64,000 bases of DNA from a virus (taxonomy: Duplodnaviria > Caudoviricetes). Positions 1-19,845 of the stretch are shown piece after piece (the first letter of the stretch is position 1; each line of letters begins with the position of its first letter). The stretch lies in IMG/VR virus record IMGVR_UViG_3300040811_001959; one strand, 5' to 3'. Made by a program: the position numbers and the translations under genes. Below the pieces are notes generated by a model, which saw only the letters and a program-made list of their open reading frames with translations, did not search any database and was not told where the DNA came from.

Positions 1-3000
1 GACTACTGTTGCAAGTTTACTACCAGAACTGTATGTATCGATAGTTCCGTACTGCCCAACTCCTATGCCACCTGTAATGAATATCCTCATAGTTTTGCCT
101 GAGTATGCAGTATCTGTATTTCCATCTGTAGCAGCAAGGGTAATATTTGCAGCCGTCACTACGCCATCGACATCTGTTGTAAGCAATCCAGTTTGAGCTG
201 TATTTGAAACAAGTAAATATCCCGATCCGCCAAATTGTTCTTCGTCTCCTGTAAGATCCGTAATCCTAATCCGGTTTACAGCATTATCTCTAAATTCGTC
301 TGCATATGTCTCTGCATTAATACCGTTGCCAAATACATTAATTCCTGCTTCGGTGTAATCATTTCCAGCATGATTAAATTCCACATTTAAAATTTTATCA
401 CCATCTGCGTTTACTTGACCTATTTCTGCATTATATTGCAAACGATTGTCAACTATACAGGTAATTGGTATTTCGTCAGCATCTACTCCTTCGGCAACCG
501 AACCAAAAGTACCGTAACTGTTATTACCGTTTGTTGCTCGTATTCTTCCGCCTGCTTCTGCTAGGTAACCTATGTGGGAATAATAAGTAAATACGGAAAC
601 AAGTTCTGCTCTACCATTATTAGTTATCCATGCTCCTATACCATCACTAATAACCTGTGTAAAGTCATTTGAAACGATTGAATCGTTTCCTCCGTTATGT
701 AGTGCGCCGTCTATTTTTTGACCTATTGCAGCATGACCAAATGTTGTAAGATTTTGAACATATGGAGATCTTGTCATAATCCATACACTTTCGTCATCTG
801 GTCCCCATCCTGGATCCAGTGAGGCATATGCTCCTGCAGTTGGTCTTCTAGTTCCAAACTCATTGTTAGGTGATAAATCGCCGTTTAATCCATCAACTGT
901 TTGTAATCGTAAACCAGTACCGTTCCGTAAGTAATACATATCCTCTTCACGAGAACCAAGAACAGCATTTACATAATACCTAGCAGCATATTTTGATTTG
1001 TAATTTGCCGGAAACTGGAAGTTTACTTGATATGATCTTAATTTTGTATCTAATGTAAATGTTCGTTGATATTCTTTAGGATGTACTAAATCCCAGCGCA
1101 TTGCGTCAACAATATAACGCATGTCTCTGCGACATAATGCAGTATTGTATTCATACCATTTTTCAACACCTAAATTAATTGTAGGATAATCTTGCGTTAT
1201 GATAAGAAATACACCACTTGCATCTTCTACAGTAAATTCATTTTCTGATAATATTTCGGAAACTACATATTCATTTCCAAATGCAATAGGAAACGTTTGA
1301 CCAATATCATTTTCAGGATAGGCATTGTCTAAATCAATAAATTTTATTGACATACCGGCATCAAGCCATTCGGTACCATTGGTCATGGTTAATCCGCTAT
1401 TTGTAGATGATATGGAAGTTACAGTTCCTGCAAACCAATTATCAACATAATTTACTGCTTCTTCTACAATGAAATCTTCATTTAATTGAAGAATTCTGTT
1501 TGTTGCCCACAAATCTGTAAAAGCTGTTTGCTTATTATTAGCTTCTGCTGCTACACCAAAAATTATGTCATTAACAAATTCAATAGCGTATCGTAATGCT
1601 TGTTTTGCCGGAGTCGATAATACGATAGCATCGGCTTGCTGCAAAGCATAAAAGTTTGCAGCCAAAGTCGCATCTTTTTGATATCCATATACTTTTGCAC
1701 TAGGTTGTCTAGCATAACTGTAAGCAGCAACTATACTTGCAAAGTTTTGATTTATAGTCCAATCGTATATTGCAGCATCAAAAATTAATGCTAAATCTCT
1801 TGTACATTTACTATGATTAAAATCAAATCCACTATAAGTTGTTGTGATACCTTGCAACGTAGCTTTTATATAGGTATCTGCGTTATTTGTTATTGTTGCT
1901 CCTGCTGCAAGGGCATCTGCGGTTTGCCAATCTAATGAAGGAGCAATGGCTGTAGCTAGAAAATCGTATTGGTTTTGAGAAATATTACCGGTAACTATAT
2001 CTCTCAGCGTATCAATCTTACCAGTTTCAGTAGGAGTTGTAAAATTAACAATGTCTGTATAAGGCTGTCCACTGATATTATTATTTGCTGCTTCCTTACA
2101 ATTAGTTGCTAAGGCTGAATATAATTGTATACTTGCTGCTCTTTCTGCAGAAGTACCATAAACTGGTTCGCCTGTAATATTATTATAGATCGATCTAACA
2201 TGATTTAATGTTGCTATATTGCATCCACTTGCGTCTGGAGTTTGATCATAATTTATATCATATGCCCATGCTTCGATCATTCTTGCTAAATCTTGTTTAC
2301 ATTTTGCTCTAAGATCAGTGCCTAATCCTTGCCAATAAGCATTAGCATTAGCTGTAAAATCAACAATGAAGTCTCTATTTTGAATTAATAAAATTTGAGT
2401 ATAGGTTCTATTAGGATAAGACGATCCTGATAAATCATGATATGTAACACTAGGAGCAGAATCGTCTCCGTCTATAAAAATGCTTTTAATCAAATTTAAT
2501 GATGAGGTTACAATTGTTGCTGCTGCATCTCCGTCTGTTGTTTCTAATGCTTCCATTCCAGCAACAGACTGATTCTTTAAAAGATCGATAGCATACAATT
2601 CTTGTTGCTGTTGTTCATTTTTTACTTTAGCTGATTGTAAACGATTGTAAGCATATCCAGAATACACCCCCCAATAATTAGATTGAAGCATACTATCATA
2701 AAATGCAGCATCTAATATATATCCGCAATCTCTTCTACAATAGGCACCTTTGTAAGTAAAATCTCCAAAATGGGTAATGATAAAATCAATAGTATTTTTT
2801 TGTATTGTATCATATTGTGCTTCAAGTAATGCTTTATCATCTAATAGATATTGTGGAGATGTAGTAATATCAGGATATACATAAGACGGTAAATTATTTA
2901 CATCTGTAATTGTTGTGATTACATCGTTCATTAAATCAAATATGTAATTACTAGCGGATAACGATGCATTGGTATTTGTAATTACTTGCTGGACATTTGT

Positions 3001-5721
3001 TTGATATGGAGGAGAAATTTGATTATTTTGAACTACACTCTGGAGCATTGCTTGTAAATATCCATACGCATCAAGAGTTGCAACTTTTTCTGTGCTATCA
3101 ATTACAAATACTCCTTCTGTTCCTCTATAGTATGCAAGAGCTGCAACTAAAGATTGCCATTGACAACCTAGTTGTATATCATAACATAAACCATCTAGTA
3201 AATAACCTACATCTTGTAAGCATTTTGTTCTACTATAATATAGATTAGGATAGTTAGTATCAAGAAATCCTTTAACCTCAGCTTTTAAAAATTCTCTGTT
3301 TCGTAGTATGTTATCTCTTGCATACCCTCCATCTGTGAAATTAAATGTATCTATCCACTGTACCTCTAATTTTGTACCTGTACCATGATCTATTAATCTT
3401 TTAATTAATCTAGTTAATCTTTCAGCAGAATAACCTGTAGTTGTATTCGCAGTAGGCCATTCTGTTATTTGAGCTTCATTATTATTATCAGTAGGTGTTA
3501 TTGATATTCCTTCAACTATTCCAGCTATTTGTGTTTCAATGTGATTTAATGCGGTATAGGTATAAAGTGGATCAGTTGCAGGTGTTAAATCTTCTTGATT
3601 TTGTCTAGGATATACTGTTACAGATCTAAGTTCATCGCCCATTATACAACATAATGCCGGTACTTGGATTGGTAAAACTTCATAGTATTTTCCAGTTGCT
3701 ACCCTAATTAAAGTATTTGTTTCGATCTTTGCAGGAAGGTTATTTGCATTGCCAGCTGTTATAGCATCAGTGATTAAGGTAATTAACTCTGTAACTCTTC
3801 CGTACGCATTTTCGTTTTCTAAATTTATATTTTTCCATTGAGAAACAACAGCAGAAGAATTATCTCCGTTTACTACCTGATAACTATTGTAACCAGTTAA
3901 ACCAATTTCCGGAGGATCAGTTTGATTTAAAACATGTTCCATTAACTGCCATGCATACACTAAGCTTGCAACAGTTTCAGTTTTTTGGCCTAAATAAGGA
4001 GATCCTACAGTATCATTAATGTATGATAAAGCAGCTTCTCTTGATTTTACATTTCCGCCATGTGTTAAATCCCAAATTACAGCATCTACAATAAATCCTA
4101 TATCTCTTTCACATTTTTCTGCAAAATATGTAAAATTAGTTGTAAAGGGATCTATACCTTCTGTTATTTGATAATCAGTCCATTCAGTTGTTTCTCGTTG
4201 AATATAAATTCTGTTTAATTCTAATAATCTTTTTGCATTAGGATATTTTGTTCCTTTGTCAATTTCTTGACAAGCAAATCTTATACTTTTCCAGGGTGAT
4301 TCTACAGTTGTTCCTCTAATAGGCGCAGGTTGATCTACACCTGTAGTGGATACATAATAAACATCTGGGTTTTGCCCAAAAAATGTCCATTGCGGTTCAT
4401 TATTAGGTGAAACACGTAATACTTGTCCTTCTTTACCGATAGGTAGTCTTGTAGGACCTGATCCACTAAAATAAACTATATCTCCTTGTGTAGTTAAGGC
4501 ATCAGTTTCTGCTCCAATTGCTAAGATATTCCAATATGTTCCTGTGATATCACGATCTGGTCTACTATTTTCTGCCCCGCCTCCTGGTGCAATTTTAGTT
4601 TCTGTTGAATAATCGTCATCTTCGCTTACATGGGACTCTATGCAAATGTAAGTAGCTGTATCATATCTTACCACGTCACCAATGACATAATATGCATCGT
4701 CTGCCCATACGCCTCTCCATTTTAATCCTGTATTGAGCCTATCCCAATATTGATTCCATGACTGATTCTCGCCTGGTTCTATGTTTGAATTATCAGTATT
4801 TGCAACATATACATACCCACCAACTGTAACTACATCTCCAGTTCTATAATCTTGAGCACTAGAATCTGCTCCCCATTCTCCTTGGAAAGAAAATCCTTTT
4901 GAAAATACAGCCCAATCCTCAATTGAAGACGTAGGAGCAATGTTAATATTTTGTCTTAGAGAAATGTATTGATACCCGCCCCATGTTACAATATCTCCTT
5001 GTTGGTATGTCGTTGTGTAGGTCCAATCGTTTTCAAAACTTAGTCCTTCTACAAAAACATCCCAACGATAATTATCACTAGCAAACTCAGCACCCGATGT
5101 ATGAAATTCATTACAAATCATTAATCCAGCACCATATTTTACAACATCATAAACTTTATAACGTGTATTTTGGGTCCATACTCCTTTCCATTCTACACCT
5201 GAGGTAAATCTGTCCCAATTTACAGCATCATTTTCTAAACCTGCAGCAAAATTATTAATGGAAGTATGAGCGGTATTACAAACAAATGTTCCGCTTCCGT
5301 ACTTTACAATATCACTTGCAAGATAATAAGTCGATGGTTGCCAATTTCCTTTCCAATCTAAACCTGTTGCGAATGTGTCCCAATTTGCTATTTCGTCTGC
5401 TAAAGTTATATTTGTGTCACTAGAGGAAGTATGAACTGTGCTACAAATATATAGATTTGCTCCATATTTAACAATATCGTTTAGTACATAGTAGGTATTG
5501 TTAGTCCAATTTCCTTTCCATGTTTGGCCATCTGACATTAAATTCCATTTAGGCGGAATTACCTCAAAGTCAGTAAAGAATAAAGTAGAACTTGTATGTC
5601 CTTCGATGCAAATATATACCCTACCCCTATAAAATACTACATCATCCTTGTAATAAACTGTATTATCTGCCCATTCATTTTTCCAAACAAACCTAATCCT
5701 ACCTAATTTAAATTCTGCCAT
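1..5721 (-). CDS. Giant virion appendage protein (>1907 aa, C-terminus runs off window): 7 CBM5/12-like repeats, pectin-lyase-like beta-helix, six Cys-x-x-Asp helical repeats
   Basis: ATG at 5721 (MAEFKLGRIRFVWKNEW) with GGAG upstream. Spot translation at 4113, 3240, 2739, 2301, 1806, 1134 and near position 1 stays in the same frame. Architecture parallels 5759..11194. Missing from the ORF track because no stop codon lies in the window. Confidence 0.85.
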   Translation of the reverse strand, partial: MAEFKLGRIRFVWKNEWADNTVYYKDDVVFYRGRVYICIEGHTSSTLFFTDFEVIPPKWNLMSDGQTWKGNWTNNTYYVLNDIVKYGANLYICSTVHTSSSDTNITLADEIANWDTFATGLDWKGNWQPSTYYLASDIVKYGSGTFVCNTAHTSINNFAAGLENDAVNWDRFTSGVEWKGVWTQNTRYKVYDVVKYGAGLMICNEFHTSGAEFASDNYRWDVFVEGLSFENDWTYTTTYQQGDIVTWGGYQYISLRQNINIAPTSSIEDWAVFSKGFSFQGEWGADSSAQDYRTGDVVTVGGYVYVANTDNSNIEPGENQSWNQYWDRLNTGLKWRGVWADDAYYVIGDVVRYDTATYICIESHVSEDDDYSTETKIAPGGGAENSRPDRDITGTYWNILAIGAETDALTTQGDIVYFSGSGPTRLPIGKEGQVLRVSPNNEPQWTFFGQNPDVYYVSTTGVDQPAPIRGTTVESPWKSIRFACQEIDKGTKYPNAKRLLELNRIYIQRETTEWTDYQITEGIDPFTTNFTYFAEKCERDIGFIVDAVIWDLTHGGNVKSREAALSYINDTVGSPYLGQKTETVASLVYAWQLMEHVLNQTDPPEIGLTGYNSYQVVNGDNSSAVVSQWKNINLENENAYGRVTELITLITDAITAGNANNLPAKIETNTLIRVATGKYYEVLPIQVPALCCIMGDELRSVTVYPRQNQEDLTPATDPLYTYTALNHIETQIAGIVEGISITPTDNNNEAQITEWPTANTTTGYSAERLTRLIKRLIDHGTGTKLEVQWIDTFNFTDGGYARDNILRNREFLKAEVKGFLDTNYPNLYYSRTKCLQDVGYLLDGLCYDIQLGCQWQSLVAALAYYRGTEGVFVIDSTEKVATLDAYGYLQAMLQSVVQNNQISPPYQTNVQQVITNTNASLSASNYIFDLMNDVITTITDVNNLPSYVYPDITTSPQYLLDDKALLEAQYDTIQKNTIDFIITHFGDFTYKGAYCRRDCGYILDAAFYDSMLQSNYWGVYSGYAYNRLQSAKVKNEQQQQELYAIDLLKNQSVAGMEALETTDGDAAATIVTSSLNLIKSIFIDGDDSAPSVTYHDLSGSSYPNRTYTQILLIQNRDFIVDFTANANAYWQGLGTDLRAKCKQDLARMIEAWAYDINYDQTPDASGCNIATLNHVRSIYNNITGEPVYGTSAERAASIQLYSALATNCKEAANNNISGQPYTDIVNFTTPTETGKIDTLRDIVTGNISQNQYDFLATAIAPSLDWQTADALAAGATITNNADTYIKATLQGITTTYSGFDFNHSKCTRDLALIFDAAIYDWTINQNFASIVAAYSYARQPSAKVYGYQKDATLAANFYALQQADAIVLSTPAKQALRYAIEFVNDIIFGVAAEANNKQTAFTDLWATNRILQLNEDFIVEEAVNYVDNWFAGTVTSISSTNSGLTMTNGTEWLDAGMSIKFIDLDNAYPENDIGQTFPIAFGNEYVVSEILSENEFTVEDASGVFLIITQDYPTINLGVEKWYEYNTALCRRDMRYIVDAMRWDLVHPKEYQRTFTLDTKLRSYQVNFQFPANYKSKYAARYYVNAVLGSREEDMYYLRNGTGLRLQTVDGLNGDLSPNNEFGTRRPTAGAYASLDPGWGPDDESVWIMTRSPYVQNLTTFGHAAIGQKIDGALHNGGNDSIVSNDFTQVISDGIGAWITNNGRAELVSVFTYYSHIGYLAEAGGRIRATNGNNSYGTFGSVAEGVDADEIPITCIVDNRLQYNAEIGQVNADGDKILNVEFNHAGNDYTEAGINVFGNGINAETYADEFRDNAVNRIRITDLTGDEEQFGGSGYLLVSNTAQTGLLTTDVDGVVTAANITLAATDGNTDTAYSGKTMRIFITGGIGVGQYGTIDTYSSGSKLATVV

Positions 5722-5758: not shown

Positions 5759-8700
5759 TCATCTCAGTGCATCTCTAAAATAATATGATAAAGCTAACGG
5801 ACTACCTTTAACACCTTTATTTTGTGCTCCTATAAAATCTGCTCTTGTATTAACATTTAATTTAAATCCTGTCGTTGTACTAAAAATATTTTCATTTGTA
5901 CCAGCACGGACTTGACCAGCTATTAACTCGTTAGTTAAAACTTCGCCACCGCCTGCACTAATTCTTGATTCAATAAAGGTTACTACAGCTCTTTGAGTAG
6001 GTATGATATTATCAGAATCTGCATAAAAATTTACATCTGTAGAAAATTCTCTAATTACTGTACCTGATCCACCTAACCTTACTCCACCTAATGCTAGTTC
6101 AGACAACCCATCTAATGAAAAGAAATCTGCACTAATAGTTACAATACCAGTAGCTTGTTCTACAGCAAATAATTCTCCTGTCCTAAAGTTACCGTCTTGA
6201 TCTGTTGAAACATAAAATACTCTTCCTCCTCCATTTTCTATTACTTCTTGTTCTGGTTTAGCAATAAAAAAGGCTCCTTCGGCATAAAGAGCAGGATAGT
6301 TTGTATCAACAAAATTACCAGTTCCAATATCTAAAAAGTCGTGACCTGTAATTCTACACTGCGAATATCTTTCTCTTATTTCAATTGATCTATTATGTGT
6401 CAATAAATCTTTATTTTGAATTTTTGGACTGATCCTAAAGTCTGCTCTCAATGTTCCTGCTATACTACCATCTGATCCTAAAGGATCTATAGTTACAAGT
6501 GTAAAAATTCGTAAATCATCAGGATTTTCTTCGTCATAAATTCCATCTATGCGAAGTTGCGCACCTGGACCTGGATAGACGGTTAAACCATCGACAAAAA
6601 TATCTACATCATTAGATGGTATCCTATCTGCATACCCGTTACCTGATATAGTAACTCGAGTTGTACTAGATCTGTAACCAATTCCTCTATTTATAAATGT
6701 AGGTTGTGGTAAAACATAGTTACCTATCCGTGTAGTAACAAAAGCTTGAGACACCCATGAATTGTCAACAATTTCTAGCTCATAATCGTTACCATTTATA
6801 TACCCACTACCTGGATCCCATATAACGATTGCATCTATAGTAGAACTATCAACTTTTGCTCTTGCAAGTGCTCTTTTACCTGTTTGTATAAGCAAAATAT
6901 CACTATCATTATTTGAAATTAATCCATAATGAAACCCTGAATTGCCCTTGTATCCAAAGCTTATAGCAGACCATACGTTAAACGAAGGTAGTGTTTGTTC
7001 AGTCCAATCTATACCGTTTTCAGAAACTGCTAAAATATTTGAATTTGCAGTCCCTGTTATAAAATATAAACCATTTGAATTTTGTATTTTATTATAAGAG
7101 CCAGCAGGCGTACTGTATTCCACCCATCCATTTATAGATTCTGAAATAGATACAAGTAGTCTTCCTTCAGTTGTTAAAGCTATGATGTGTCCAGCGTTAG
7201 ATGTAATACTTATGAATTCGTGTGGTAACCCTGGTTGTTCAGGATCTGGTTGATTCAACGGAGTTGAATCCGCTTCAACCGTCCATATAATGTCTTCTGT
7301 ATCTTCGTCCCAGACTCCTAAAGCTATTGCCCTTGCATCTGATAAAGCAATAAATTTATTGTATTCATACGTAAGTACTGTCCAATCTGTTGTAACTGAA
7401 TTAGGAATTTCAGAACTAGCCCATGATGTACCATTAGTTGAGTAAAATGCAGTGCTTGAATTTGTCAAAATAACAAATATTCCGTCTCCGTACGCAATAT
7501 CTTTTATATTTCGTGTAGAAGGTAGGCTTGCTTGACCCCAGTTTGTTCCTGTTCTTGAGTAGGCAATAGTTGAACTTGTTCCATAAGGAATGCATATAAA
7601 AATTCCATTTCCATTTATAATTTTACTCCATGCTTGAATTAAAGGTAAAAATATTTCTGTCCAAGTTTTTCCATCTATAGAGTACCCAGAGAAGTTACCA
7701 TCTGAAACAACCATCCATTTTCCTTCTAATCCTTCTCCTGTAATCTGGATATTTGTAATAGTAGATGTGCTGTCATCTGTAACTTCTAAAACTTTTATTG
7801 TTAGATCATTTATGTCTACTTCTCCACCTAACTGATCTCCTTTTATTACAAAAATATCATCTACTGCATATCCGGCTCCACCGTTTAAAATATCAACTGA
7901 ATACTCTTTGCCTTGTTTTGTTACTCGAAAATTAGCCCTTAACGGAATAATTCCAACTACTTCACCATTGCCAAAGTCTAAAGATATGTTGTAAATTTCG
8001 GTTGTAGGCCCCCAGATTACGTCAGTCCATAATTTAGAATTACTTAAAAGTTCGGCAGTTACTGAAAATCCTGGATGTGGTACAATTATCCTAGGTTCAA
8101 TTGAATATGACGTACTTGCTGTAAGTAACGGTGCAATTGTTGTTCCTGGAACAATATGATCCCATCCTGGTTGATCGTCAGATTCTCTATAAATTGTTGC
8201 CGTCCTGTAATTTTGAGATAAATCATCATCCTCGTAAGCTTGTATGTACCCATATTGTCCTGTACCAGGTCCTGATGTAATGACTAGACGTTGTCCTACA
8301 TAATCATCTGCTGTAAATAAATCAGTTGCTGATAACTTTATATCTAAATCTGTTCCTAACTGAGCATTGTTTTTTCGAATAGTATATCCTAATCCTCCTA
8401 TCCTTGTACTATCTTGCGGTTCTTGTAATCTAAACTCAAAAATTCCGCCTTGCCGAAAACTGTTATATTCGCTCTGCACAAAATTTCCTGATCCTACTAC
8501 TGTTGCAGAAGCATTTGTATAATTTTCTCCGCAATGTGCATATTCAAATATTAGTAATCTGTCTAATTCTCCACTATCATCTGAAATTTCTCCAGCAAAA
8601 GCCTGATAAACTGAGGCTTCGGTCGTCCTTGTGTTAACGGTTGCATATCTAGGAGTTTCAGCATCGTCGATTCCGAGCGCAACTGATCCATACTCTCCGT

Positions 8701-11194
8701 AACTATTATTACCGTTAGTTGCTCTTATTGTTCCGCCATTTTCTGCAAGATATCCTACATAGCAATAATAGGTAAAAACACTTACTAATTCTACCCGGCC
8801 TCTATTTAAAATATATGCTCCAATTCCGTCACTTAATACTTGGGTAAAATCATTTGCTACCATTGATCTATTACCGCCATTGTGTAATATTCCGTCAATG
8901 TGTGCGCCTATACATCCAGTACCTATTGTTGTTACTCCTTGAACATACGGAGATCTATTATTAATCCATGCTTCTTCGTGGGCAGGTCCCCAACCTGGAT
9001 CTAAGCTAACAAATGCTCCGCCAGTAACTCTTGTTGTATTAATAAGAGGTGCTGCTCCGGTCAATTGCCCTACTAATCCTTCAGTAGTACAATTTCGTAA
9101 TCCAGTGATGTCTCGTACATAAAACATATTTGTATGTTTAGATCCAATTATTTGATTAGCTAATAGAGTAGAATATCTAATAGCTTTATAATTTCCAACA
9201 TAGTTAAAATCGTAAATAAATCCATTTAAAAACATTTCAATGTCTAATTTTATTTTATCTGGATCAATTTCATCGGACAAAGTTGTTGCAGTAATCAAAC
9301 ACTCTTGTGTAAGGAATTCATAATTATTAATTATTAGAGAACGTGCTCGTTGAAAGCTTTCTGAACTTATATTATTTGTGCCAGTAAGTTCTATATTTGA
9401 CGGACTACCTTGTACAATTGATGTAATATTTTCTTCTATATTTGCAAATAAATTATTCATTAAATTTATTACAACTGTTGGATCCTCAATTTCTAGTTCA
9501 GGAAAAACTTGTACTGCTGTATTGCCTAATTGCGGCGATATATTTTCTCCGTTAATCAGAGAAGGAAAAATTGTAGCTAAATGATTTAAATATGCTATTG
9601 TAACTTCACTATCGTCAAACCCTGTATTATTTGGTAATATAGAAACAGATCTAAGCTCGTCGCCCATTACTACTGTCATTTTAGGAATTACAATTGGCAA
9701 TACTTCTTCGTATCTTCCTGTACTTACAGAAATTTTGCAAGGCATTATGTTATTTTCTTCAACAAATCTGCAAGCATATTGTATAGTTCTAAATGCGTGA
9801 TATGGATCTAAACCTCTTCCTCGAGCATCAATACCAGTTGGTGATACATATACAACAGTTGTTTCTGTTTGATGCAACGTTCTCCAGAACAATCTAAAAT
9901 CGTCACTAACAGATAATAACTGATCTAACTCTCCAATTCTCAAGCCTGTTGGCCCAATTGTGCTATTATCACCTACTGCTTCTCTTTGGAAATCGTAGGT
10001 AAGTAAGTCACCAAAAAAGTTCATTCCTGCTTCACTACCAGATTGTACAATTAAATCCCAGTAAAAAAAACCTTTGCCATTGTCGCCTGGAAAATTATCT
10101 CCATTTGATAAATGAGGACTGTTACATTTCCATGATTGGCCTAGGTAATAAATTATATCATTTATAAAATATTGTACATTTATCCTCCAAAAATTTGCCC
10201 ATTTTTGTCCAGGTATAAATACTTTCCATTTTGTTTCGTCTAAGACTTCTTCGTAATTTTGTCCTTCTAAAATAGCTTGACATTCATATAACTCGCCGCC
10301 AAACAGAGCAAGATCACCGGGTTTATACTGATTTCCTATAATGTAGTTACCGGTTATAGAATTAGAGGAAACCAATTTGTTCCAATAGGCTACACTATCA
10401 TCTGTATTTGTCGGAGCAACATTTACGTTACTAGCAAGACATACATACCACGAACCACCAAATTGCACTGTATCACCTGCACCGTAATATGTGCTTGCAG
10501 TCCATTCGTCTGCATATACATATCCAGGTATAGCTACTTCAAAATTGTGTCGATAAAAGTTAGGTCCTGACACATGTGATACAATAACAACATATATTGA
10601 TCCACCAAAATTTACATAATCATTTTTTTTATAAAAAATTCCTTCTGTGTAATCTCCTATAAATTGATGACCATCTGTAAATAAATTCCATTTTGTTTCG
10701 TCATCTTCTAACAGTGTTCCAGAAGTATGAGACGTAATACATCTATAATTCAAACCGCTATATTTTACAATTGCACCTGCTCCAAAAACTTTATTTGGTT
10801 CCCAGTCCTTAACATATTCACTGCCAGTAATAAAAACATTCCATTTGCTTATGTCATTTGAAAATGCTCCTGAAAAATGTCCATCATTGCACAACCATAA
10901 CGATCCGTCAAATAGAACAATATCTCCTTGTTGATATTGATAAGAATTCTGCCATCTTCCTATAAAAGCTTGACTGCCGGTCATTACTTTCCAATGTATG
11001 TCTGGTAAAGGAGGATTGCTATTCGGAACGATTGCTTCTAAATCTACGTTAAAATCAGCATTTGAAACATGTTGCTTAAAACAAACATAAGTTTTTGCTC
11101 CTACTCTTACTACATCGTCTTTATTGTAGCTATAATTTGGCTGCCATTCACCTAACCAATTATATTTGAATCTTTCTAGTTTAAATTCTGACAT
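5759..11194 (-). CDS. Giant virion appendage protein (1811 aa): 7 CBM5/12-like repeats, beta-helix, BNR/Asp-box-like propeller
   Basis: Repeats W-x-G-x-W-x5-Y-x2-GD-x-V-x-Y-x-G-x2-Y-x-C; motifs VYVSPTG, EVLPIVIP..MGDELRS and SPYVQGVTT; SxDG/NGxxW boxes. Confidence 0.75.
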   Translation of the reverse strand: MSEFKLERFKYNWLGEWQPNYSYNKDDVVRVGAKTYVCFKQHVSNADFNVDLEAIVPNSNPPLPDIHWKVMTGSQAFIGRWQNSYQYQQGDIVLFDGSLWLCNDGHFSGAFSNDISKWNVFITGSEYVKDWEPNKVFGAGAIVKYSGLNYRCITSHTSGTLLEDDETKWNLFTDGHQFIGDYTEGIFYKKNDYVNFGGSIYVVIVSHVSGPNFYRHNFEVAIPGYVYADEWTASTYYGAGDTVQFGGSWYVCLASNVNVAPTNTDDSVAYWNKLVSSNSITGNYIIGNQYKPGDLALFGGELYECQAILEGQNYEEVLDETKWKVFIPGQKWANFWRINVQYFINDIIYYLGQSWKCNSPHLSNGDNFPGDNGKGFFYWDLIVQSGSEAGMNFFGDLLTYDFQREAVGDNSTIGPTGLRIGELDQLLSVSDDFRLFWRTLHQTETTVVYVSPTGIDARGRGLDPYHAFRTIQYACRFVEENNIMPCKISVSTGRYEEVLPIVIPKMTVVMGDELRSVSILPNNTGFDDSEVTIAYLNHLATIFPSLINGENISPQLGNTAVQVFPELEIEDPTVVINLMNNLFANIEENITSIVQGSPSNIELTGTNNISSESFQRARSLIINNYEFLTQECLITATTLSDEIDPDKIKLDIEMFLNGFIYDFNYVGNYKAIRYSTLLANQIIGSKHTNMFYVRDITGLRNCTTEGLVGQLTGAAPLINTTRVTGGAFVSLDPGWGPAHEEAWINNRSPYVQGVTTIGTGCIGAHIDGILHNGGNRSMVANDFTQVLSDGIGAYILNRGRVELVSVFTYYCYVGYLAENGGTIRATNGNNSYGEYGSVALGIDDAETPRYATVNTRTTEASVYQAFAGEISDDSGELDRLLIFEYAHCGENYTNASATVVGSGNFVQSEYNSFRQGGIFEFRLQEPQDSTRIGGLGYTIRKNNAQLGTDLDIKLSATDLFTADDYVGQRLVITSGPGTGQYGYIQAYEDDDLSQNYRTATIYRESDDQPGWDHIVPGTTIAPLLTASTSYSIEPRIIVPHPGFSVTAELLSNSKLWTDVIWGPTTEIYNISLDFGNGEVVGIIPLRANFRVTKQGKEYSVDILNGGAGYAVDDIFVIKGDQLGGEVDINDLTIKVLEVTDDSTSTITNIQITGEGLEGKWMVVSDGNFSGYSIDGKTWTEIFLPLIQAWSKIINGNGIFICIPYGTSSTIAYSRTGTNWGQASLPSTRNIKDIAYGDGIFVILTNSSTAFYSTNGTSWASSEIPNSVTTDWTVLTYEYNKFIALSDARAIALGVWDEDTEDIIWTVEADSTPLNQPDPEQPGLPHEFISITSNAGHIIALTTEGRLLVSISESINGWVEYSTPAGSYNKIQNSNGLYFITGTANSNILAVSENGIDWTEQTLPSFNVWSAISFGYKGNSGFHYGLISNNDSDILLIQTGKRALARAKVDSSTIDAIVIWDPGSGYINGNDYELEIVDNSWVSQAFVTTRIGNYVLPQPTFINRGIGYRSSTTRVTISGNGYADRIPSNDVDIFVDGLTVYPGPGAQLRIDGIYDEENPDDLRIFTLVTIDPLGSDGSIAGTLRADFRISPKIQNKDLLTHNRSIEIRERYSQCRITGHDFLDIGTGNFVDTNYPALYAEGAFFIAKPEQEVIENGGGRVFYVSTDQDGNFRTGELFAVEQATGIVTISADFFSLDGLSELALGGVRLGGSGTVIREFSTDVNFYADSDNIIPTQRAVVTFIESRISAGGGEVLTNELIAGQVRAGTNENIFSTTTGFKLNVNTRADFIGAQNKGVKGSPLALSYYFRDALR

Positions 11195-11956: not shown

Positions 11957-12388
11957 TTAATCGTCGACTACTGCACCACGATAAAAATCAAGGGTCATTA
12001 GATACTGATAAGCCTGTGTAAGTTCATTATTTAGATTATTAATATCTAATAAAAACATGCATCTTGAATCGTATGCTGCATGTCCTACATGTTGGCCGTA
12101 TTCATTATCTGTAGGATACATGCCTATAAAACCTACAGGACGCATACCTTTTTCTTTATCTTTTTTTGATGCCCAAACAGTTATTGCAATAGTGCAAACA
12201 TAGCCAGCTTTCCAAAGAACTTCAGGGCCTTTGTCTCCTACTTCTGTAAAGCCAGATTCAGTTGAATCGTCTGGTGGGGGTAAAATGTCACTTACTCTTT
12301 TTTGGGTTGATATTTGTGTAATTACATGATATGCATTTGGTATTGTATATGATGTACCTGCTAGAGTATAATCTTTTATTAAAGCCAT
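11957..12388 (-). CDS. Probable tail fibre assembly/accessory protein (143 aa)
   Basis: Coupled (TAATG) directly downstream of the long fibre gene; function inferred from position. Confidence 0.5.
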   Translation of the reverse strand: MALIKDYTLAGTSYTIPNAYHVITQISTQKRVSDILPPPDDSTESGFTEVGDKGPEVLWKAGYVCTIAITVWASKKDKEKGMRPVGFIGMYPTDNEYGQHVGHAAYDSRCMFLLDINNLNNELTQAYQYLMTLDFYRGAVVDD

Positions 12389-15300
12389 TATTTAATCCTG
12401 TCTAATAATTTATTTACTAAATCTTTTAATTCTATAATTTCATTTTCTAATTTATCAATTTTTTTCTGCTGGGTTTTAATTGCTTCAATAAAAACACCTG
12501 CCATTTTTCCATAATCAACACCATATTGGTCAATATCAGCTGCGTAGGTTACAACTTCAGGAAGTATTTTTTCAACATCTTGTGCAATCACTCCTACCTT
12601 GCGGGTTTTTGCTTCGTCATCTTTGCGATTATAATACACCCCTTGTAATTTTAATACAATGTTTAAAGCATCGTCAACTGCTACAACATTTTCTTTTAAT
12701 CTTGCATCAGAATACGCTACAATATCACCGGTGCTATAAACTGCTTTGTCTACATATAACCCATAACTACTACTTGTTGTGCTTGTATTAATTCCTGTAC
12801 AATTATTATTCCTGTTATGATAAAGATACCACCGTGATGTAGAATTATTATTAAAATAAATTCCACCGTTGCCTCCCGAGTCACCCATGTAATGCATGTA
12901 ACTGTATGAATCTAGAAAACCGCCATACCCTCCCCTACTCCCATTCATTCTCCACGGTGTATACGATGTTAGAGTATTTGGATACCAATGTGCGTCGTTT
13001 GCATTAGAATAGATGCCTTGGGTGCCAAAATTCATCCAATTACCGGAATAATTATAACCACTACTTCCGTTAACTTGAAATACTACTGTATCTGAATCAT
13101 AATCGCTTGTAAATCGAACGCCATTGTAGCTGCTATTTGCTCCTATTTTTATTCCCGTATGATAATTAATACGTAAATCAGGATACGGTGTAGACCATGC
13201 ACCTCCTTCTTGATATAAAGCATAGGCATGAGCACTAGCTGATGCTGGTTTTCCACTGTCTTGACCAGTTTTGTAAAACCAAAGTGTTCCTACGCTAACA
13301 TCATAATTATCAGCTCCACTTACTGAGGTACCAAGTGCTGGAAAATGTTTTCCGTCAAGTGTGTCAGCATCTAGTCCTGAACTAGGACCATCATTACCTG
13401 CATGCCATACCGTATAGGCATTGCTTTCTGCAGTGTATTGCAATCCATTTATTCCATCATTTATATCTAAATATTCATCAGTTCTGTCATTATATAGCCG
13501 CAATGAACTGTTATTTACATATTGAATATATGCTCTTCTAGTAGTATCTTGCCAAAAAGATATATAAGGATTGCCTGTAGTGCTTTGAGTTTGAATTTTT
13601 ATCTGTTCATCACCATTTCTACGTAGAGTTAATAATCCAGTTGATGTATCATCTGCGTCACTCCTTATAAATGATCCACTATCAAGTCCGTCTACAGTAT
13701 CAGCATCTAAACCACTGCCTGTTCCATCATTACCTGCATGCCAAACAGTGTTGCCTAGGATTGTCATTCCGGCACCTGTACCTCCTAAACTGATAGTATT
13801 TGACCAACTAGGTATTGTTCCGTTGCTAACAAGTACAGTATCGCTCAGTCCTATATTCAATTGTGTCAAGCTGTTGTTAGAACCACTGTAAATCAAATCT
13901 CCTTGAGAATACGTTGTAAGTCCTGTACCACCTTGAGCAATTCCTATTGCTGCTGATTGGTTTGTAGGATCTAAGAAATATGCTGCACTAAATCCTCCTA
14001 ACAATCCTGCATCAATTACTCCTGATTTGACACTTACTTTTCCGTTAGTCACTGTAAATTGACTTTTAAGAAAGCTAGATAATCCTTCTGAACTATAGGT
14101 ATTATCATTGGGATTTGATGCTTGATCAGAAGCTCGTGTAATATCAATTACTAATGAATTATAATAATAATTGATATTACTTGTTGTAAAATAATCTCCT
14201 GTAAATGTTATTGGACTATTAGTATTTGGTCTAATATTCTGGAGTGCATATTGCCAAGAACTGTCTCCCCTAAGGAACGTTTTATTAGATGCAGAGCCTG
14301 CTGCTGCTAATCTAGAGGTTGTTATAACGCCACTAACAATGTTTGATGCATCTATAGTAGATTGAGCTATTCCGCTCCAGTTGGTTGCAACAGAACTTGA
14401 ATAATTGTAAGCCCCAATTACTTTAACGTTTTGCTCTCTTACTGATAAAGTACCAGCACCTACATCTGTAATATCAACTGCTGATGTTGTAGCTCCGTTG
14501 ACACTGCTTGTTGCATCTGCTACGTTATTGTGTAAACTAAAAGAATTTGTTGTAACACTACCTATCCAGTAAGAACTAAAATCATTTAAACCTCCGGGCA
14601 TTAATGAAGAGCTCGATAGTCTAACTGGAGTTCCAACAGTTAGTCCATGGCTAGGGTATATTATCCTATTTTCGTCAACATTTATTTCATATCTTGTTAG
14701 ATTGTGTGATCCGGTGCTTGATCCACTTAAACTTACTGCAGTTCCACTAGTAAAAGCATAATTTGTATATAGTTCAATTGAATCTGTTGTTATAACTTTT
14801 ACAAAATATGTCGTATTATTAGTGAGTCCTGTAATTGTTAAATTACCTCCATTACTATACCTAACCGGATCGCCGTCAGCAAATCCGTGCGCTGTTATAT
14901 TAATGTAATTATTAGCGTAATCAACATCACCGCTTTGAGCAATATCAGCGGCATTAAATGATTTTACAATCGATCCTGTTTGATTGACTCCAAAGATTGG
15001 AGCATTTGCATCAGTTATATAGTCTGGAATAGCAGCACTAGGAGAAAATTTAATATAACTACCTGTTAACTCTAAGAACAATCTATTTTGGATAGAAGTT
15101 ACAACTCCGGCAAAACCGCTGCCAGTTCCGCTGAAATCTGCATTTGAAACTGTTATAGTATCGCCTACTGTCCAATATTCACTCGCATCAACTATATCAA
15201 TATTTGTAATTACACCATTTGATACTGTAACATTACCAAGAGTATTACTGGCTCCGTTTCCGTATAACACTGCATTGTAGACAATAGTGTTTCCTCCATT

Positions 15301-18300
15301 GCTATATCCTGATCCTCCATTAGTTATATTAAGTGTGTACAAGATACCAAGTCTTAAAGGACTAACAGAACCAGTTCCTGTTGGACCATTAACCAAATTA
15401 CCTTCTGCACCTGAAACTGCTCCTATAACACTCACCGTTGTGCTAAAATTATAACTTTGTGAAGGGTCTAATACTAGAAATTGATTTGTGTTATCATTGT
15501 TTAGAAAATAATTTTCAACAATTGTTGTTACTGGTCCTACAACTGTTGGAACTGAAGCTGCACCAAGAAATGTACCATTATCTATCAATTGATTAGATGT
15601 ATTAAATGTGCCTGTTGGATTTACAAGTATTAAAGTTGTACCGTTGATAACAGCTTCTTTAACAGTACCAGATGCTCCACTGCTATCTTGAATTAAGAAC
15701 ACGCCTTTAACAATGTATGTTGCTGATGTAAGAGTTAATTCTATTTGATCATATGTTTCACTTGCATTATCACCTGATAGAATTTCTGTTACAGGTACTG
15801 TATTCCATAATGTAAACCTACCTTCGTATGAATCTACATTGTAAGTGGTTACACCTCGACTAGGAGGTAATAAATCTGCGTTTATTTGTCCTTGACTATT
15901 TAGTAATACTAAAGCACCAGGAACAGCATTAGAACTAGCTTGTTTATCTAACACATCACCTAATCTATTAGCAAAAAAACTCCGCACTGCAAGTTGCGTT
16001 GATAATCTACTATTAAGAGCTCCGCCTGGCTCATTGTCGCCTAGATCAACATCAGTAGATATAGCATCAACTTCAACATCTGATAACGACAACTTCAAAA
16101 CTGCTAATGTTGTAATTTGGACTTCTGTCCTAAAAATGATATTACCAGATTTATTTTCAGCAACAATAAAATCGCCAACTTTAAAATCACCTAATTCATT
16201 TGTACCTGAACTGTAAACTCTACCTGGTAATTCTGATATCTGCTCAAAAGATGCACCTCTTCCTAAACCACCGTTTTGTGGTAATGCATTGTAGTCAATT
16301 CCTGATCCGGCATATTCCCATGTATGAGCCGACGAGTTTACAATACTTGGACGATGGAAATTTATTTTTTGTAATAATGCCTGGGCATATTGCAGAAAAG
16401 TATTTCCTTCAACTGTAGATTGAATTTGAAACTGTGAAGTCCATAAATCTGTACGTGATGCGGTACCTGCAACACCAATATTGCTTGAACTTCCATTAAT
16501 GCTAGTTATAGAGCTAGTTGCAGACCAAAACACTCGTTGTTGTAATTCATTTATAACGCTGTACTCTACTGATACAACTAAAACATTTGTTGCGCTATTG
16601 TATGAATAAACATAAGCATTATTTTCAAATCCATCTGTTTCTCCAACTATTGAATCACCAGGAGAAAAACTGTATGTTCCAGGATCTAAATTTAATGTTT
16701 GATAATTATTGTGATAATCTATCATCCTATCGACAAAAAATTCTTCTGGAAAAAGCAACAGTTTGTGATTACCTACACCAACTGCTGTAATATCTATTTG
16801 AGCTAATAATCCTTCGTCATTGTATAATTCAATAGTATCTTCATCAATAGTTTTTATGTAATAGATAGCCTGATCAACTAAACCAGGAATATCAATATTA
16901 CCGTCATTGCTGTACTGTGCAGGTGTACTATCTAATATACCATGTCCTACAATTGTTATTTGGTTTAAAGTTGCATCAATGTCAACTGCTGCATCAAATG
17001 TCTTAATTGGCTGTACGGCCTTGAAACTACTTGTTATATCTAAATTTGTAGTAGCATCTTTAATTCTAATTACAAATTGTTCAATAACTCTTCTTCCTGT
17101 TCCAATAGAAGTTATTGTAAAAACACCATTTGATGTTCCTATGTTTGCAATCAAACCTCTATCAAATGTAAAACTATTTTGGCTATAACCTGTTGCTCGT
17201 AAAGCAAAATAACCAAAGTTTGTGGCTGAGTTTGTAATAGATAAGTATCCACCAGACTGGCAGTATGAACCATTTAGGCAAAATATTTGAAAACAAGATA
17301 CAATTTGGGCATATCCGTCATTAGTTACAAGCCATCCTGTACCGCCAAATGATACCATTGTGAAAGCGTTAGCAACCATAGATTTACCTTGTTCAGGCAC
17401 ACCATCTGTTAAATTAACTGGAAATTCTGCTTCGTCTGGAAATTGAGGAATGTTAGGAGTAAGAACTTTTGATCCGTCAACTTTGACTCCATTGCCGCCT
17501 AAGAATGATATTATTGATGAATTTTGAATATATGGAGATAAAGTTATAGTTGGTTTATCTTTAGACAGACCAAAATATCCTGTCCTATCAACTGAACTAT
17601 CAGTAGGATCATCAAATGCTACCGCAAAATCAAATGTGTAATCTGGACGCAAATCATTATCAAGGCCATCTCGGAAAGTGATGCCAGTGAGATATGCTCC
17701 ATTCCTTACCCTAAACATATCTTTATTTGCATTCAATGGTCGAATAACAACTGCTCGCAAACTATCTCCTACAACAGAAACTAGATCTGGAATAATAATA
17801 GGATTGTCTACATAAAAATCTCCACTAGCAACATTTACTGTAACTGGAATAGTCCTAAAAGATGCTGCTGTAACTGTTCCACTATATGCAGTTTCTGTGT
17901 CTAATATATCTACAATGATATTGTATAATGCTAAAATATCAGTTTCTGTAGTTGAAGCAGTAAGAGCAGGATATTTTACTTGCTGTACTATATTCTGATA
18001 TTTTGCTGGATGATCTGCACTGTTAATAATGCTAATACTTAAATCTCTTATGAATTTTATAGATTCAACAGTTGCTGTTTTTTGATTGTTTATTACTTCA
18101 GTAACTGTTAAATAGCTTTCTCCTGCTTCAACGGATTTTTCATTTCCGCCTAGGATTAAATCAAAAACAACAGCATCAACAATTAATCCTACGTCTCTTT
18201 CGCATGTTGCTGAATTGTAAGTTAGGTTATTGTAAGTTGTAGTTATAAAATTTATTGTGGCCGAAATAGTTGTTCCTCTTAAGTTTTGAACATTTGTAAA

Positions 18301-19845
18301 ACTAGAATATAAAGGTTCATTAGATACAGGAGCTTGTACTAATGTAGGAATACTATTCGGATTGCCTGCTGTGATTGCATCTTCTACAATTTGCAATAAA
18401 GCCGCAGCCAGACTAACTTCTGTAGCAGTAGAAGCAGGATTAGATATATCTTGACTACTTGCAGTTGAAATAGGACTCCAATTAATATCTGCTTGGATAA
18501 TATTTCCTAAAACAACTGAAAGATAATCATATGCATCTGCTGTAGCAGTTGCTTCATTTTGGCCTAATTGGCTCACTCCGTTGACATAATAAGATTGAGC
18601 TGCAGTTACTGATGCACTGTTACCTCCGGATATAATACTGCTATTATTTCCATACATGATGTCGTAGCACAAAGCATCAATTAAATATCCAACATCTCTA
18701 TAACATTTTGAACTATCGTAATTAAGTGTAGGATATTCTTGATTAATATAAGCGATTATTTCTTCTTGAGCAAAAGTCCTATTTGCAACAAGCTGAAGCA
18801 TGGCATTATATTGATTTGTAGTTGTTCCTGATGCAGCAGGAAAATTTAATGTTGCTACAATATCGTTTTCAATAATATTTGTTATGATATCAAAATTTGC
18901 ATCACTAGCTGCCTGTGCAGTTGGATTAGCTGTTAGATAACCGTTTACTTCACCTTTTGCAAAATTAATAGAACCAAGTGTTTGTATACTTTGATATGTT
19001 TGATTTGAGCTGGCATTTGCCCTTTTATAAGATAAACCTGCAGTTACAGAATTATAATTTGTTCCTAAAACAAAATCATATGTAACTGCATCAATAATTA
19101 GACCTGTGTCTCTTTCACACTTAACTGTATCAAAATAATTGTTGAAATAAACAAAATTATATTCAATAAATTCTATTGTTTCTTTTTGAATGTATCTTCT
19201 ATTGTCTTCTAATAATCTTTTTGCATTGTAAGCTTCGGTTCCGGGATCAACATTTGGAATTTGTCCTAAACTTGCTGCAATCTGACAAGCTCTTTTAATT
19301 GTTTTTACAGGTGCATTTACACCGTCATTTAGGTCATCGCCGTATCTGTCAGACGCAAAAACCCTGTTGCCGCCAAAAAAGTCAGTCTTACTCCATGTTG
19401 TATTTCCTTTGCCATCGTTTCCAAGTAAACTAAAATCAATAGGTTGTTCAGCAGGTAATTTTAGTATATAATTTTGTTCTATGGTATCAGGAGCTTGAAT
19501 AGCAATATATTTGTTATTTGCATTATCAAAAAGAGTGAATGTTTCTGCACCGTTTAGAGTTAACGGTCCTGAAAAAGTTATACCTCCTGCAGTAATTGAA
19601 ATTTTTTCAGTACCGTTAACATTTAATTGAATTGAACTTAGATCAGGATCACTGTTAGTATTTGTAATAACACTGGTGGTGTCATCAAAAATTTGTTTGG
19701 TAGTATCAACAATGTCATTGTTTAAATTTTTTAAAAAAATCTTACCATCTGCATAATTAATTGCAATTTCGCCATATTCAAGGTCGTTAATAGTAGGAAT
19801 TTTATTATTTACACCACTTCTTTTTAGTTTTAAAACTGTTGCCAT
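12388..19845 (-). CDS. Long tail fibre (2485 aa) with beta-helix domain and C-terminal intramolecular chaperone (peptidase S74)
   Basis: C-terminal SDARLKEN..LxGVYY plus coiled coil; fibre knot motifs AGNDG.GSGLDAD..DG; N-terminal LKLKRS..VPT..L..GE.A.NY.DGK.F attachment motif. Confidence 0.85.
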   Translation of the reverse strand: MATVLKLKRSGVNNKIPTINDLEYGEIAINYADGKIFLKNLNNDIVDTTKQIFDDTTSVITNTNSDPDLSSIQLNVNGTEKISITAGGITFSGPLTLNGAETFTLFDNANNKYIAIQAPDTIEQNYILKLPAEQPIDFSLLGNDGKGNTTWSKTDFFGGNRVFASDRYGDDLNDGVNAPVKTIKRACQIAASLGQIPNVDPGTEAYNAKRLLEDNRRYIQKETIEFIEYNFVYFNNYFDTVKCERDTGLIIDAVTYDFVLGTNYNSVTAGLSYKRANASSNQTYQSIQTLGSINFAKGEVNGYLTANPTAQAASDANFDIITNIIENDIVATLNFPAASGTTTNQYNAMLQLVANRTFAQEEIIAYINQEYPTLNYDSSKCYRDVGYLIDALCYDIMYGNNSSIISGGNSASVTAAQSYYVNGVSQLGQNEATATADAYDYLSVVLGNIIQADINWSPISTASSQDISNPASTATEVSLAAALLQIVEDAITAGNPNSIPTLVQAPVSNEPLYSSFTNVQNLRGTTISATINFITTTYNNLTYNSATCERDVGLIVDAVVFDLILGGNEKSVEAGESYLTVTEVINNQKTATVESIKFIRDLSISIINSADHPAKYQNIVQQVKYPALTASTTETDILALYNIIVDILDTETAYSGTVTAASFRTIPVTVNVASGDFYVDNPIIIPDLVSVVGDSLRAVVIRPLNANKDMFRVRNGAYLTGITFRDGLDNDLRPDYTFDFAVAFDDPTDSSVDRTGYFGLSKDKPTITLSPYIQNSSIISFLGGNGVKVDGSKVLTPNIPQFPDEAEFPVNLTDGVPEQGKSMVANAFTMVSFGGTGWLVTNDGYAQIVSCFQIFCLNGSYCQSGGYLSITNSATNFGYFALRATGYSQNSFTFDRGLIANIGTSNGVFTITSIGTGRRVIEQFVIRIKDATTNLDITSSFKAVQPIKTFDAAVDIDATLNQITIVGHGILDSTPAQYSNDGNIDIPGLVDQAIYYIKTIDEDTIELYNDEGLLAQIDITAVGVGNHKLLLFPEEFFVDRMIDYHNNYQTLNLDPGTYSFSPGDSIVGETDGFENNAYVYSYNSATNVLVVSVEYSVINELQQRVFWSATSSITSINGSSSNIGVAGTASRTDLWTSQFQIQSTVEGNTFLQYAQALLQKINFHRPSIVNSSAHTWEYAGSGIDYNALPQNGGLGRGASFEQISELPGRVYSSGTNELGDFKVGDFIVAENKSGNIIFRTEVQITTLAVLKLSLSDVEVDAISTDVDLGDNEPGGALNSRLSTQLAVRSFFANRLGDVLDKQASSNAVPGALVLLNSQGQINADLLPPSRGVTTYNVDSYEGRFTLWNTVPVTEILSGDNASETYDQIELTLTSATYIVKGVFLIQDSSGASGTVKEAVINGTTLILVNPTGTFNTSNQLIDNGTFLGAASVPTVVGPVTTIVENYFLNNDNTNQFLVLDPSQSYNFSTTVSVIGAVSGAEGNLVNGPTGTGSVSPLRLGILYTLNITNGGSGYSNGGNTIVYNAVLYGNGASNTLGNVTVSNGVITNIDIVDASEYWTVGDTITVSNADFSGTGSGFAGVVTSIQNRLFLELTGSYIKFSPSAAIPDYITDANAPIFGVNQTGSIVKSFNAADIAQSGDVDYANNYINITAHGFADGDPVRYSNGGNLTITGLTNNTTYFVKVITTDSIELYTNYAFTSGTAVSLSGSSTGSHNLTRYEINVDENRIIYPSHGLTVGTPVRLSSSSLMPGGLNDFSSYWIGSVTTNSFSLHNNVADATSSVNGATTSAVDITDVGAGTLSVREQNVKVIGAYNYSSSVATNWSGIAQSTIDASNIVSGVITTSRLAAAGSASNKTFLRGDSSWQYALQNIRPNTNSPITFTGDYFTTSNINYYYNSLVIDITRASDQASNPNDNTYSSEGLSSFLKSQFTVTNGKVSVKSGVIDAGLLGGFSAAYFLDPTNQSAAIGIAQGGTGLTTYSQGDLIYSGSNNSLTQLNIGLSDTVLVSNGTIPSWSNTISLGGTGAGMTILGNTVWHAGNDGTGSGLDADTVDGLDSGSFIRSDADDTSTGLLTLRRNGDEQIKIQTQSTTGNPYISFWQDTTRRAYIQYVNNSSLRLYNDRTDEYLDINDGINGLQYTAESNAYTVWHAGNDGPSSGLDADTLDGKHFPALGTSVSGADNYDVSVGTLWFYKTGQDSGKPASASAHAYALYQEGGAWSTPYPDLRINYHTGIKIGANSSYNGVRFTSDYDSDTVVFQVNGSSGYNYSGNWMNFGTQGIYSNANDAHWYPNTLTSYTPWRMNGSRGGYGGFLDSYSYMHYMGDSGGNGGIYFNNNSTSRWYLYHNRNNNCTGINTSTTSSSYGLYVDKAVYSTGDIVAYSDARLKENVVAVDDALNIVLKLQGVYYNRKDDEAKTRKVGVIAQDVEKILPEVVTYAADIDQYGVDYGKMAGVFIEAIKTQQKKIDKLENEIIELKDLVNKLLDRIK

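Follow-up and report, generated by a model that had tools for sequence, protein, structure and literature searches.

The window, the whole 64,000-nucleotide stretch of viral DNA analysed here (IMG/VR record IMGVR_UViG_3300040811_001959; Caudoviricetes), begins within the gene of a giant fibre-type virion protein that contains six cysteine-bearing helical repeats, the subject of this work. Translation of positions 1-5721 on the minus strand gives a single open frame of 1907 amino acids, which extends past the window start and corresponds to the N-terminal 71% of P0002, a 2697-residue fibre-type protein recovered from a protein collection. Its PHROG matches are all tail fibre families (9851, 4527, 5342 and 17885; E down to 3e-135). 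This similarity and the location of the gene in a structural block, with fibre genes, the major head protein and the prohead protease as neighbours, identify the product as a tail-fibre component of the virion. The repeats are six tandem units of one module with six helices, which large marine phages use in building their giant fibre proteins. The features are listed below; all six modules were delimited by motif search, homologue alignment and AlphaFold model.

1..5721, minus strand: giant fibre-type virion protein gene, first 1907 of 2697 residues within the window; PHROG tail-fibre families
4282..5721, minus strand: N-terminal CBM5/12-type carbohydrate-binding repeats, residues 1 to ~480; PF02839 E 2.5e-25, 5 stretches
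3754..4242, minus strand: module 1, residues 494-656; Cys537 at 4111-4113
3607..3714, minus strand: first beta rung, residues 670-705; model strands and a conserved G.Y.E.LP..VP......GDE.R motif with invariant alignment columns
2905..3336, minus strand: module 2, residues 796-939; Cys834 at 3220-3222
2470..2853, minus strand: module 3, residues 957-1084; Cys995 at 2737-2739
1975..2415, minus strand: module 4, residues 1103-1249; Cys1141 at 2299-2301
1552..1920, minus strand: module 5, residues 1268-1390; Cys1306 at 1804-1806; modelled singly and used as query for the fold searches
958..1518, minus strand: module 6, residues 1402-1588; Cys1530 at 1132-1134; helices b and c separated by a beta insertion (residues 1431-1521)
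1..936, minus strand: beta-rich region that follows the modules, residues 1596-1907 and on past the window; model strands, PHROG tail-fibre matches at 1641-1750
18019..19233, minus strand: three more members of the module family in the adjacent 2485-residue tail-fibre open reading frame (ORF; 12388-19845); Cys codons at 19117-19, 18703-05 and 18202-04

The pattern C..D.....[DE][AG]...[DW], searched in the 1907-residue frame, finds exactly six copies, one per module, in the form K-C-x-R-D...D-A-x-x-Y-D. The six cysteine codons are the same ones that the first-pass annotation, made from the sequence alone, had marked. An AlphaFold2 model of residues 490-1689 (1200 residues, 96 homologous rows) forms one packed body, with a predicted local distance difference test (pLDDT) of 87.9 and a predicted template modelling score (pTM) of 0.84. 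Each module is predicted to comprise ~125-190 residues in six helices, a to f, the longer copies being those with insertions. The cysteine is residue 3 or 4 of the 21-residue helix c in every modelled unit, and the N(R)x(F/Y)I.xE helix that the annotation had seen ahead of several units is helix b of each. The annotation had also described the units as interrupting a pectin-lyase-like beta-helix. Its outline stands, with the model placing unit 1 before the beta rung and units 2-6 between this rung and the beta-rich structure that starts at residue ~1596, but no beta-helix or pectate-lyase Pfam family matches the protein.

The motif is conserved well beyond this protein. In 120 homologues (37-57% identity) the Cys, Arg+2, Asp+3 and Asp+14, counted from the cysteine, are invariant or nearly so in each unit present; the motif is therefore not due to chance. 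A profile-based census of 2,264 units from 267 proteins, which are otherwise ~20-30% identical to each other, gives these frequencies:

Position -5: Tyr, 85.6%
Position -1: Lys, 58.6%
Position 0: Cys, 95.9%
Position +2: Arg, 90.7%
Position +3: Asp, 98.6%
Position +5: Gly, 73%
Position +9: Asp, 76.8%
Position +14: Asp, 99.5%
Positions +18 and +19: Gly and Gly, 72% and 58%
Position +20: Asn, 78%

Conservation of the Cys and Asp in homologues had been proposed as a check on the annotation, and the values at positions 0, +3 and +14 bear it out. The family is also widespread. A profile built from 132 diverse units (A3) matches 1,410 clusters (50% identity) at E<=1e-3, the best-scoring of which are all very large proteins, and the copy number ranges from 2 to 36 in tandem per protein, with the maximum of 36 in a protein of 6,382 residues. 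In a representative library, proteins P0122-P0124 contain 31-36 modules. Some cyanophage-type contigs (IMG/VR records G009 and G010) have the module within single open frames of 6,588-8,394 residues. The source databases annotate the best-scoring proteins just as "hypothetical protein". Within the window, the 1811-residue ORF at 5759-11194, a paralogue of the N-terminal part of the fibre protein, has no module at E<=1e-3.

The relationship of the module to phycobiliproteins emerges from PDB, Pfam and hhalign searches, none of the three steered toward this family. The profile A3, run with hmmsearch against 177,635 distinct PDB sequences, gives 33 matches at E<=10, all of them phycocyanin alpha chains; the best (E 0.003) aligns unit positions 6-58 with chain residues 41-103. 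When the 132 units are scanned against 24,736 Pfam families, PF00502 is matched by nine units (best E 4.4e-4) and any other family by at most two, whereas the window's own six units match no Pfam family at E<=10. The comparison of A3 by hhalign with a profile of CpcA, built like that of CpcB from natural genes on cyanobacterial contigs, yields a probability of 91.9% (P 6.8e-7, score 42.8), against a score of 12 for the reversed template and at most 16.8 for thirty column-shuffled queries. The unit consensus K-C-x-R-D-V-G-Y-I-[IV]-D-A-x-x-Y-D-L-x-Y-G-G-N aligns with a 22-residue CpcA segment, so that the match is longer than C-x-R-D, and in both the GG cap follows the Cys at the same distance. 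The C-x-R-D stands near the helix start, as expected of an attachment cysteine, at the census frequencies given above. Lys-1, Arg+2 and Asp+3 are what we take to be the residues that contact the alpha-84 bilin in phycocyanin structures. Judged from these alignments, the module lies formally outside PF00502, the similarity being sub-threshold and remote, and keeps the defining attachment helix. By common descent, the module probably derives from the bilin-binding globins (phycobiliproteins and BBAG-1/3), although very remotely and in fused form.

The predicted structure gives a partial agreement. Helices c-f of the model are laid out like helices E, F, G and H of phycobiliproteins, with a four-helix superposition. 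Since the helix stretch between the Cys and the GG cap is equally long in both, the module Cys is likely to be in the register of Cys84. Unit 5 modelled alone (pLDDT 86.8) has no significant Foldseek match in the PDB; phycobiliproteins dominate its weak matches, with template modelling (TM) scores up to 0.53. Its top Swiss-Prot match is phycoerythrocyanin beta, a weak one (E 0.85). The ESM Atlas searched by language-model features returns no phycobiliprotein or other informative match, and Foldseek with the 1200-residue model finds just non-specific large helical proteins. A phycobiliprotein alpha/beta heterodimer that assembles into trimers and hexamers is a different arrangement: the module units follow each other in a single chain and have no N-terminal X-Y helices, and the alignments begin at phycobiliprotein residues 41-70.

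The remainder of the protein and the window place the modules in their context. The N-terminal repeats belong to the CBM5/12 family, with PF02839 scoring 88.7 bits against a cut-off of 26.2. Outside the window, P0002 residues ~2075-2270 give weak, sub-threshold Sortilin-Vps10, DUF6242 and BNR/Asp-box signals; this sequence suggests a beta-propeller-like distal domain in the C-terminal part. The gene has no megablast match in the phage collection, and phmmer against the PDB, with the whole protein and with its C-terminal half, returns nothing useful. The major head protein (31149-32330, minus strand) is 69-71% identical to those of Vibrio 2.275.O, Sinorhizobium Phosso, PA5oct, CBB and GAP32, jumbo phages of heterotrophs. 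The window's phage is therefore not an ordinary T4-like cyanophage. On the other hand, the cultured relatives of the fibre protein are only Synechococcus phages, so that the phage joins a head of jumbo-phage type to fibres of cyanophage type. CheckV estimates for related contigs point to genomes of ~350 kb, and the module occurs in 12 of the 17 contigs of this jumbo lineage.

In cyanophages, the module tends to accompany the gene of CpeT, a T-type bilin-lyase homologue. CpeT occurs in roughly a fifth of cyanomyoviruses, and its purpose is stated as open (PMC10452541). Among 15 complete genomes, both the module and CpeT are present in seven (S-PM2, P-HM1, S-SCSM1, P-RSM6, ACG-2014i and two IMG/VR genomes), neither in five (P-SSM2, S-SSM7, S-PRM1, S-8S55 and Vibrio 2.275.O) and CpeT without the module in none; the one-sided Fisher value, calculated by hand and with no phylogenetic correction, is 0.019. 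In ~21 named cyanophages, a module-bearing giant "short tail fiber" gene follows cpeT on the same strand at a distance of 0.4-3.7 kb. cpeT directly precedes the fibre gene in ACG-2014i and is separated from it by three small genes in S-PM2, whereas in P-HM1, S-SCSM1 and P-RSM6 cpeT and the module gene are far apart. S-PM2 has nine modules, in two giant proteins, plus cpeT. In many cyanomyoviruses, an island of small genes separates the gp5 baseplate hub genes from the giant fibre gene with the modules, and cpeT is the last or nearly the last gene of this island. The S-PM2 RefSeq record places 16 transfer RNA (tRNA) features under one locus tag, S-PM2t009, at 168556-173383, inside the coding sequence of the 3779-residue 'short tail fiber protein'. 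This interval is an uninterrupted open frame that encodes modules, and the tRNA features therefore look like a coordinate error in the record. An association with bilin synthesis genes was also considered and dropped: all four of the longest viral contigs that carry pcyA contain the module, but the two that are complete come from ordinary psbA-bearing cyanophages.

The best explanation overall, held tentatively and at less than even confidence, is a fused remote bilin-globin module whose site still binds a ligand. The module keeps the whole chromophore helix, K-C-x-R-D-[VI]-G-Y ... Y-x-L-x-x-G-G, followed by three helices like F, G and H, and the near-invariant Lys/Cys/Arg/Asp site may still be a ligand site. 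A linear tetrapyrrole would be taken up and bound to the Cys by a thioether as the fibre folds inside the infected cell. The uptake might be autocatalytic, as in ApcE and the BBAGs, or aided in cyanophages by the phage CpeT homologue. The outcome would be a pigment-studded fibre shaft, for which light sensing, photoprotection and stabilisation are candidate roles. C-x-R-D is a recognised mark of covalently bilin-binding globins, and BBAG-1/3 of heterotrophs attach bilins without lyases (PMC10151467). The hemO-pcyX cassettes occur in phages of possibly non-photosynthetic hosts, their purpose stated as open (PMC11480375). Bilin binding by the modules is plausible, although rather doubtful, and more doubtful still for the window's phage. 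That virions carry covalent bilins on their fibres, with the CXRD modules as the acceptor for the phage CpeT, PebS/PcyA and hemO-pcyX cassettes, is unlikely. The interpretation offered in the annotation is partly supported: its modules, their conservation and the chromophore-helix resemblance to phycocyanin hold, with a kinship that is remote and sub-threshold.

Several results weigh against bilin binding and, in part, against the kinship. The aligned stretch is one helix of 27 columns, and when these are masked in both profiles the hhalign score falls to 11.7, with no signal left; CpcB alone gives a weak 8.7% probability. Asp+14, the most conserved residue, has no phycobiliprotein counterpart, nor have Asp+9 and Asn+20, and for a pigment with two carboxylates, three Asp on one helix would be an unusual pocket. 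The Cys is missing from about 4% of the units, which have mostly Phe, Tyr, Ser or Thr instead. The fold scores are such as unrelated helical bundles often reach: B12-domain bundles and a de novo four-helix bundle score equal or higher, helices a-b fail to superpose in most alignments, and searches by shape of the AlphaFold database (AFDB) clusters and the ESM Atlas find no phycobiliprotein match. As to the genes, three of the 15 genomes (S-T4, S-BM3 and B23) have the module without CpeT, the co-occurrence and synteny figures for cpeT ignore phylogeny, and T-type lyases normally serve Cys153/155 and not Cys84-type sites (PMC10452541). The idea that pebS tracks the module is rejected, since P-SSM2, S-SSM7, S-PRM1 and S-8S55 carry pebS without it; P-SSM2 makes bilins and yet has no module. 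FDBR, heme oxygenase and CpeS are found in none of the 17 jumbo-lineage contigs, and CpeT in none of 19 (these 17 and two further contigs of cyanophage type). With a completeness of 12-60% and the structural block at their centre, the jumbo-lineage contigs neither support nor refute bilin binding by their lack of bilin genes. The 64-kb window has no heme oxygenase or PcyA-type reductase neighbourhood such as the BBAGs have, and its small ORFs include no lyase-like family.

Kinship with phycobiliproteins and the role of the site are separate questions. For the role, bilin binding and the three readings that follow are alternatives to each other and together take up nearly all of the probability. 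One of these has to be taken seriously, although it too falls short of being probable: the module would be a purely structural, spectrin-like helical spacer that lengthens or stiffens the fibre, its Cys/Arg/Asp/Asp a buried polar or packing network and its phycocyanin likeness convergent or a relic. The 2-36 tandem copies per protein, the single packed body of the 1200-residue segment (pTM 0.84), the confinement of the phycocyanin similarity to one helix, the non-specific fold matches outside the PDB and the most conserved residue, Asp+14, which is not a phycobiliprotein feature, all fit it, as does the frequent occurrence of the module in jumbo-lineage contigs that show no bilin genes. A small buried residue, however, would normally be swapped with Ala, Ser or Val, and yet the Cys is kept in 96% of the 2,264 divergent units. 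Unpaired Cys are also unusual in extracellular virion proteins, the identity of Lys-1, Arg+2 and Asp+3 with the presumed bilin contacts is exact, and the spacer leaves the cpeT association unexplained.

The site may instead bind something other than a bilin, either a metal ion through Asp+3, Asp+9 and Asp+14, with or without the Cys, or a host-surface ligand, the modules then being adhesion or sensing units. This is improbable. In its favour are three near-invariant acidic residues that occupy neighbouring faces of a single helix, along with Asn+20 and Tyr-5, and the CBM5/12 binding repeats in the same protein; no known metal-binding or lectin family is matched, Cys with carboxylates is uncommon as a metal site, and the sequence relationship points specifically toward bilin proteins. 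Very improbable is a covalent cross-link of the Cys, autocatalytic or made by an enzyme, within a module or between chains, that would harden the fibre. The one invariant lone Cys per module beside a conserved Lys and Asp would suit it, and in the 161500-177000 region of S-PM2 (NC_006820.1) cpeT and the giant fibre gene have a 2-oxoglutarate-Fe(II) oxygenase gene between them, but such a link is without precedent in helical bundles and no partner residue is identified. A disulphide is considered unlikely because each module has one conserved Cys. An enzymatic, depolymerase reading was dropped, since up to 36 tandem copies of an all-helical bundle fit binding or structural modules better.

Phage bilin genes are without a proven purpose, and a full attachment helix in a virion protein makes the question testable at the bench, with S-PM2 as a cultured model. 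Were bilin binding true, the module would give the first case of a pigment in a virion component and would add a new branch to the bilin-binding globins. Virions would then have a shaft that absorbs or senses light, a possible basis of light-dependent adsorption. Even without bilin binding, the module is a very common and so far undescribed component of the giant fibres of marine phages, and its near-invariant Cys/Asp site calls for an explanation.

No paper on such modules in phage virions was found in published full texts, and the closest known systems each share a part of its features. CpcA, the best match within PF00502, shares the chromophore helix K-C-x-R-D-[IV]-G-Y...Y-x-L-x-x-G-G with the same Cys-GG spacing; the three following module helices superpose on F, G and H, and the distance from the Cys to the domain end is similar, at ~80 residues. 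The module differs from phycobiliproteins in lacking the X-Y (dimerisation) hairpin and any sign of alpha/beta pairing, in helices a-b not clearly equivalent to A/B, in having no detectable similarity outside helix E, in the extra Asp+9, Asp+14 and Asn+20, and in its tandem fusion (6 copies here, up to 36) in a virion fibre protein. BBAG-1 and BBAG-3 are non-photosynthetic phycobiliprotein relatives with CXRD that attach several bilins without a lyase, and they show that the fold and the motif work beyond light harvesting (PMC10151467). As described, they are small, soluble and encoded beside heme oxygenase, pre-PcyA, V4R and Fe-S genes, which sets the module apart (PMC10151467): it is part of a structural protein, and no such neighbours are seen in the window or the lineage contigs. 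ApcE, in which a domain of phycobiliprotein type is fused to the rest of a giant structural protein and attaches bilin autocatalytically, sets a precedent; it has one such domain with REP linker repeats, belongs to the phycobilisome core and is neither a virion protein nor a tandem array. The true family members are the giant 'short tail fiber' or structural proteins of T4-like cyanophages (S-PM2 p091 and the 3779-residue protein; ACG-2014i gp028), with 1-9 module copies and similar flanking fibre domains. These phages have psbA and often cpeT, whereas the capsid protein of the window's phage is closest to those of GAP32/PA5oct/Vibrio 2.275.O-type jumbo phages.
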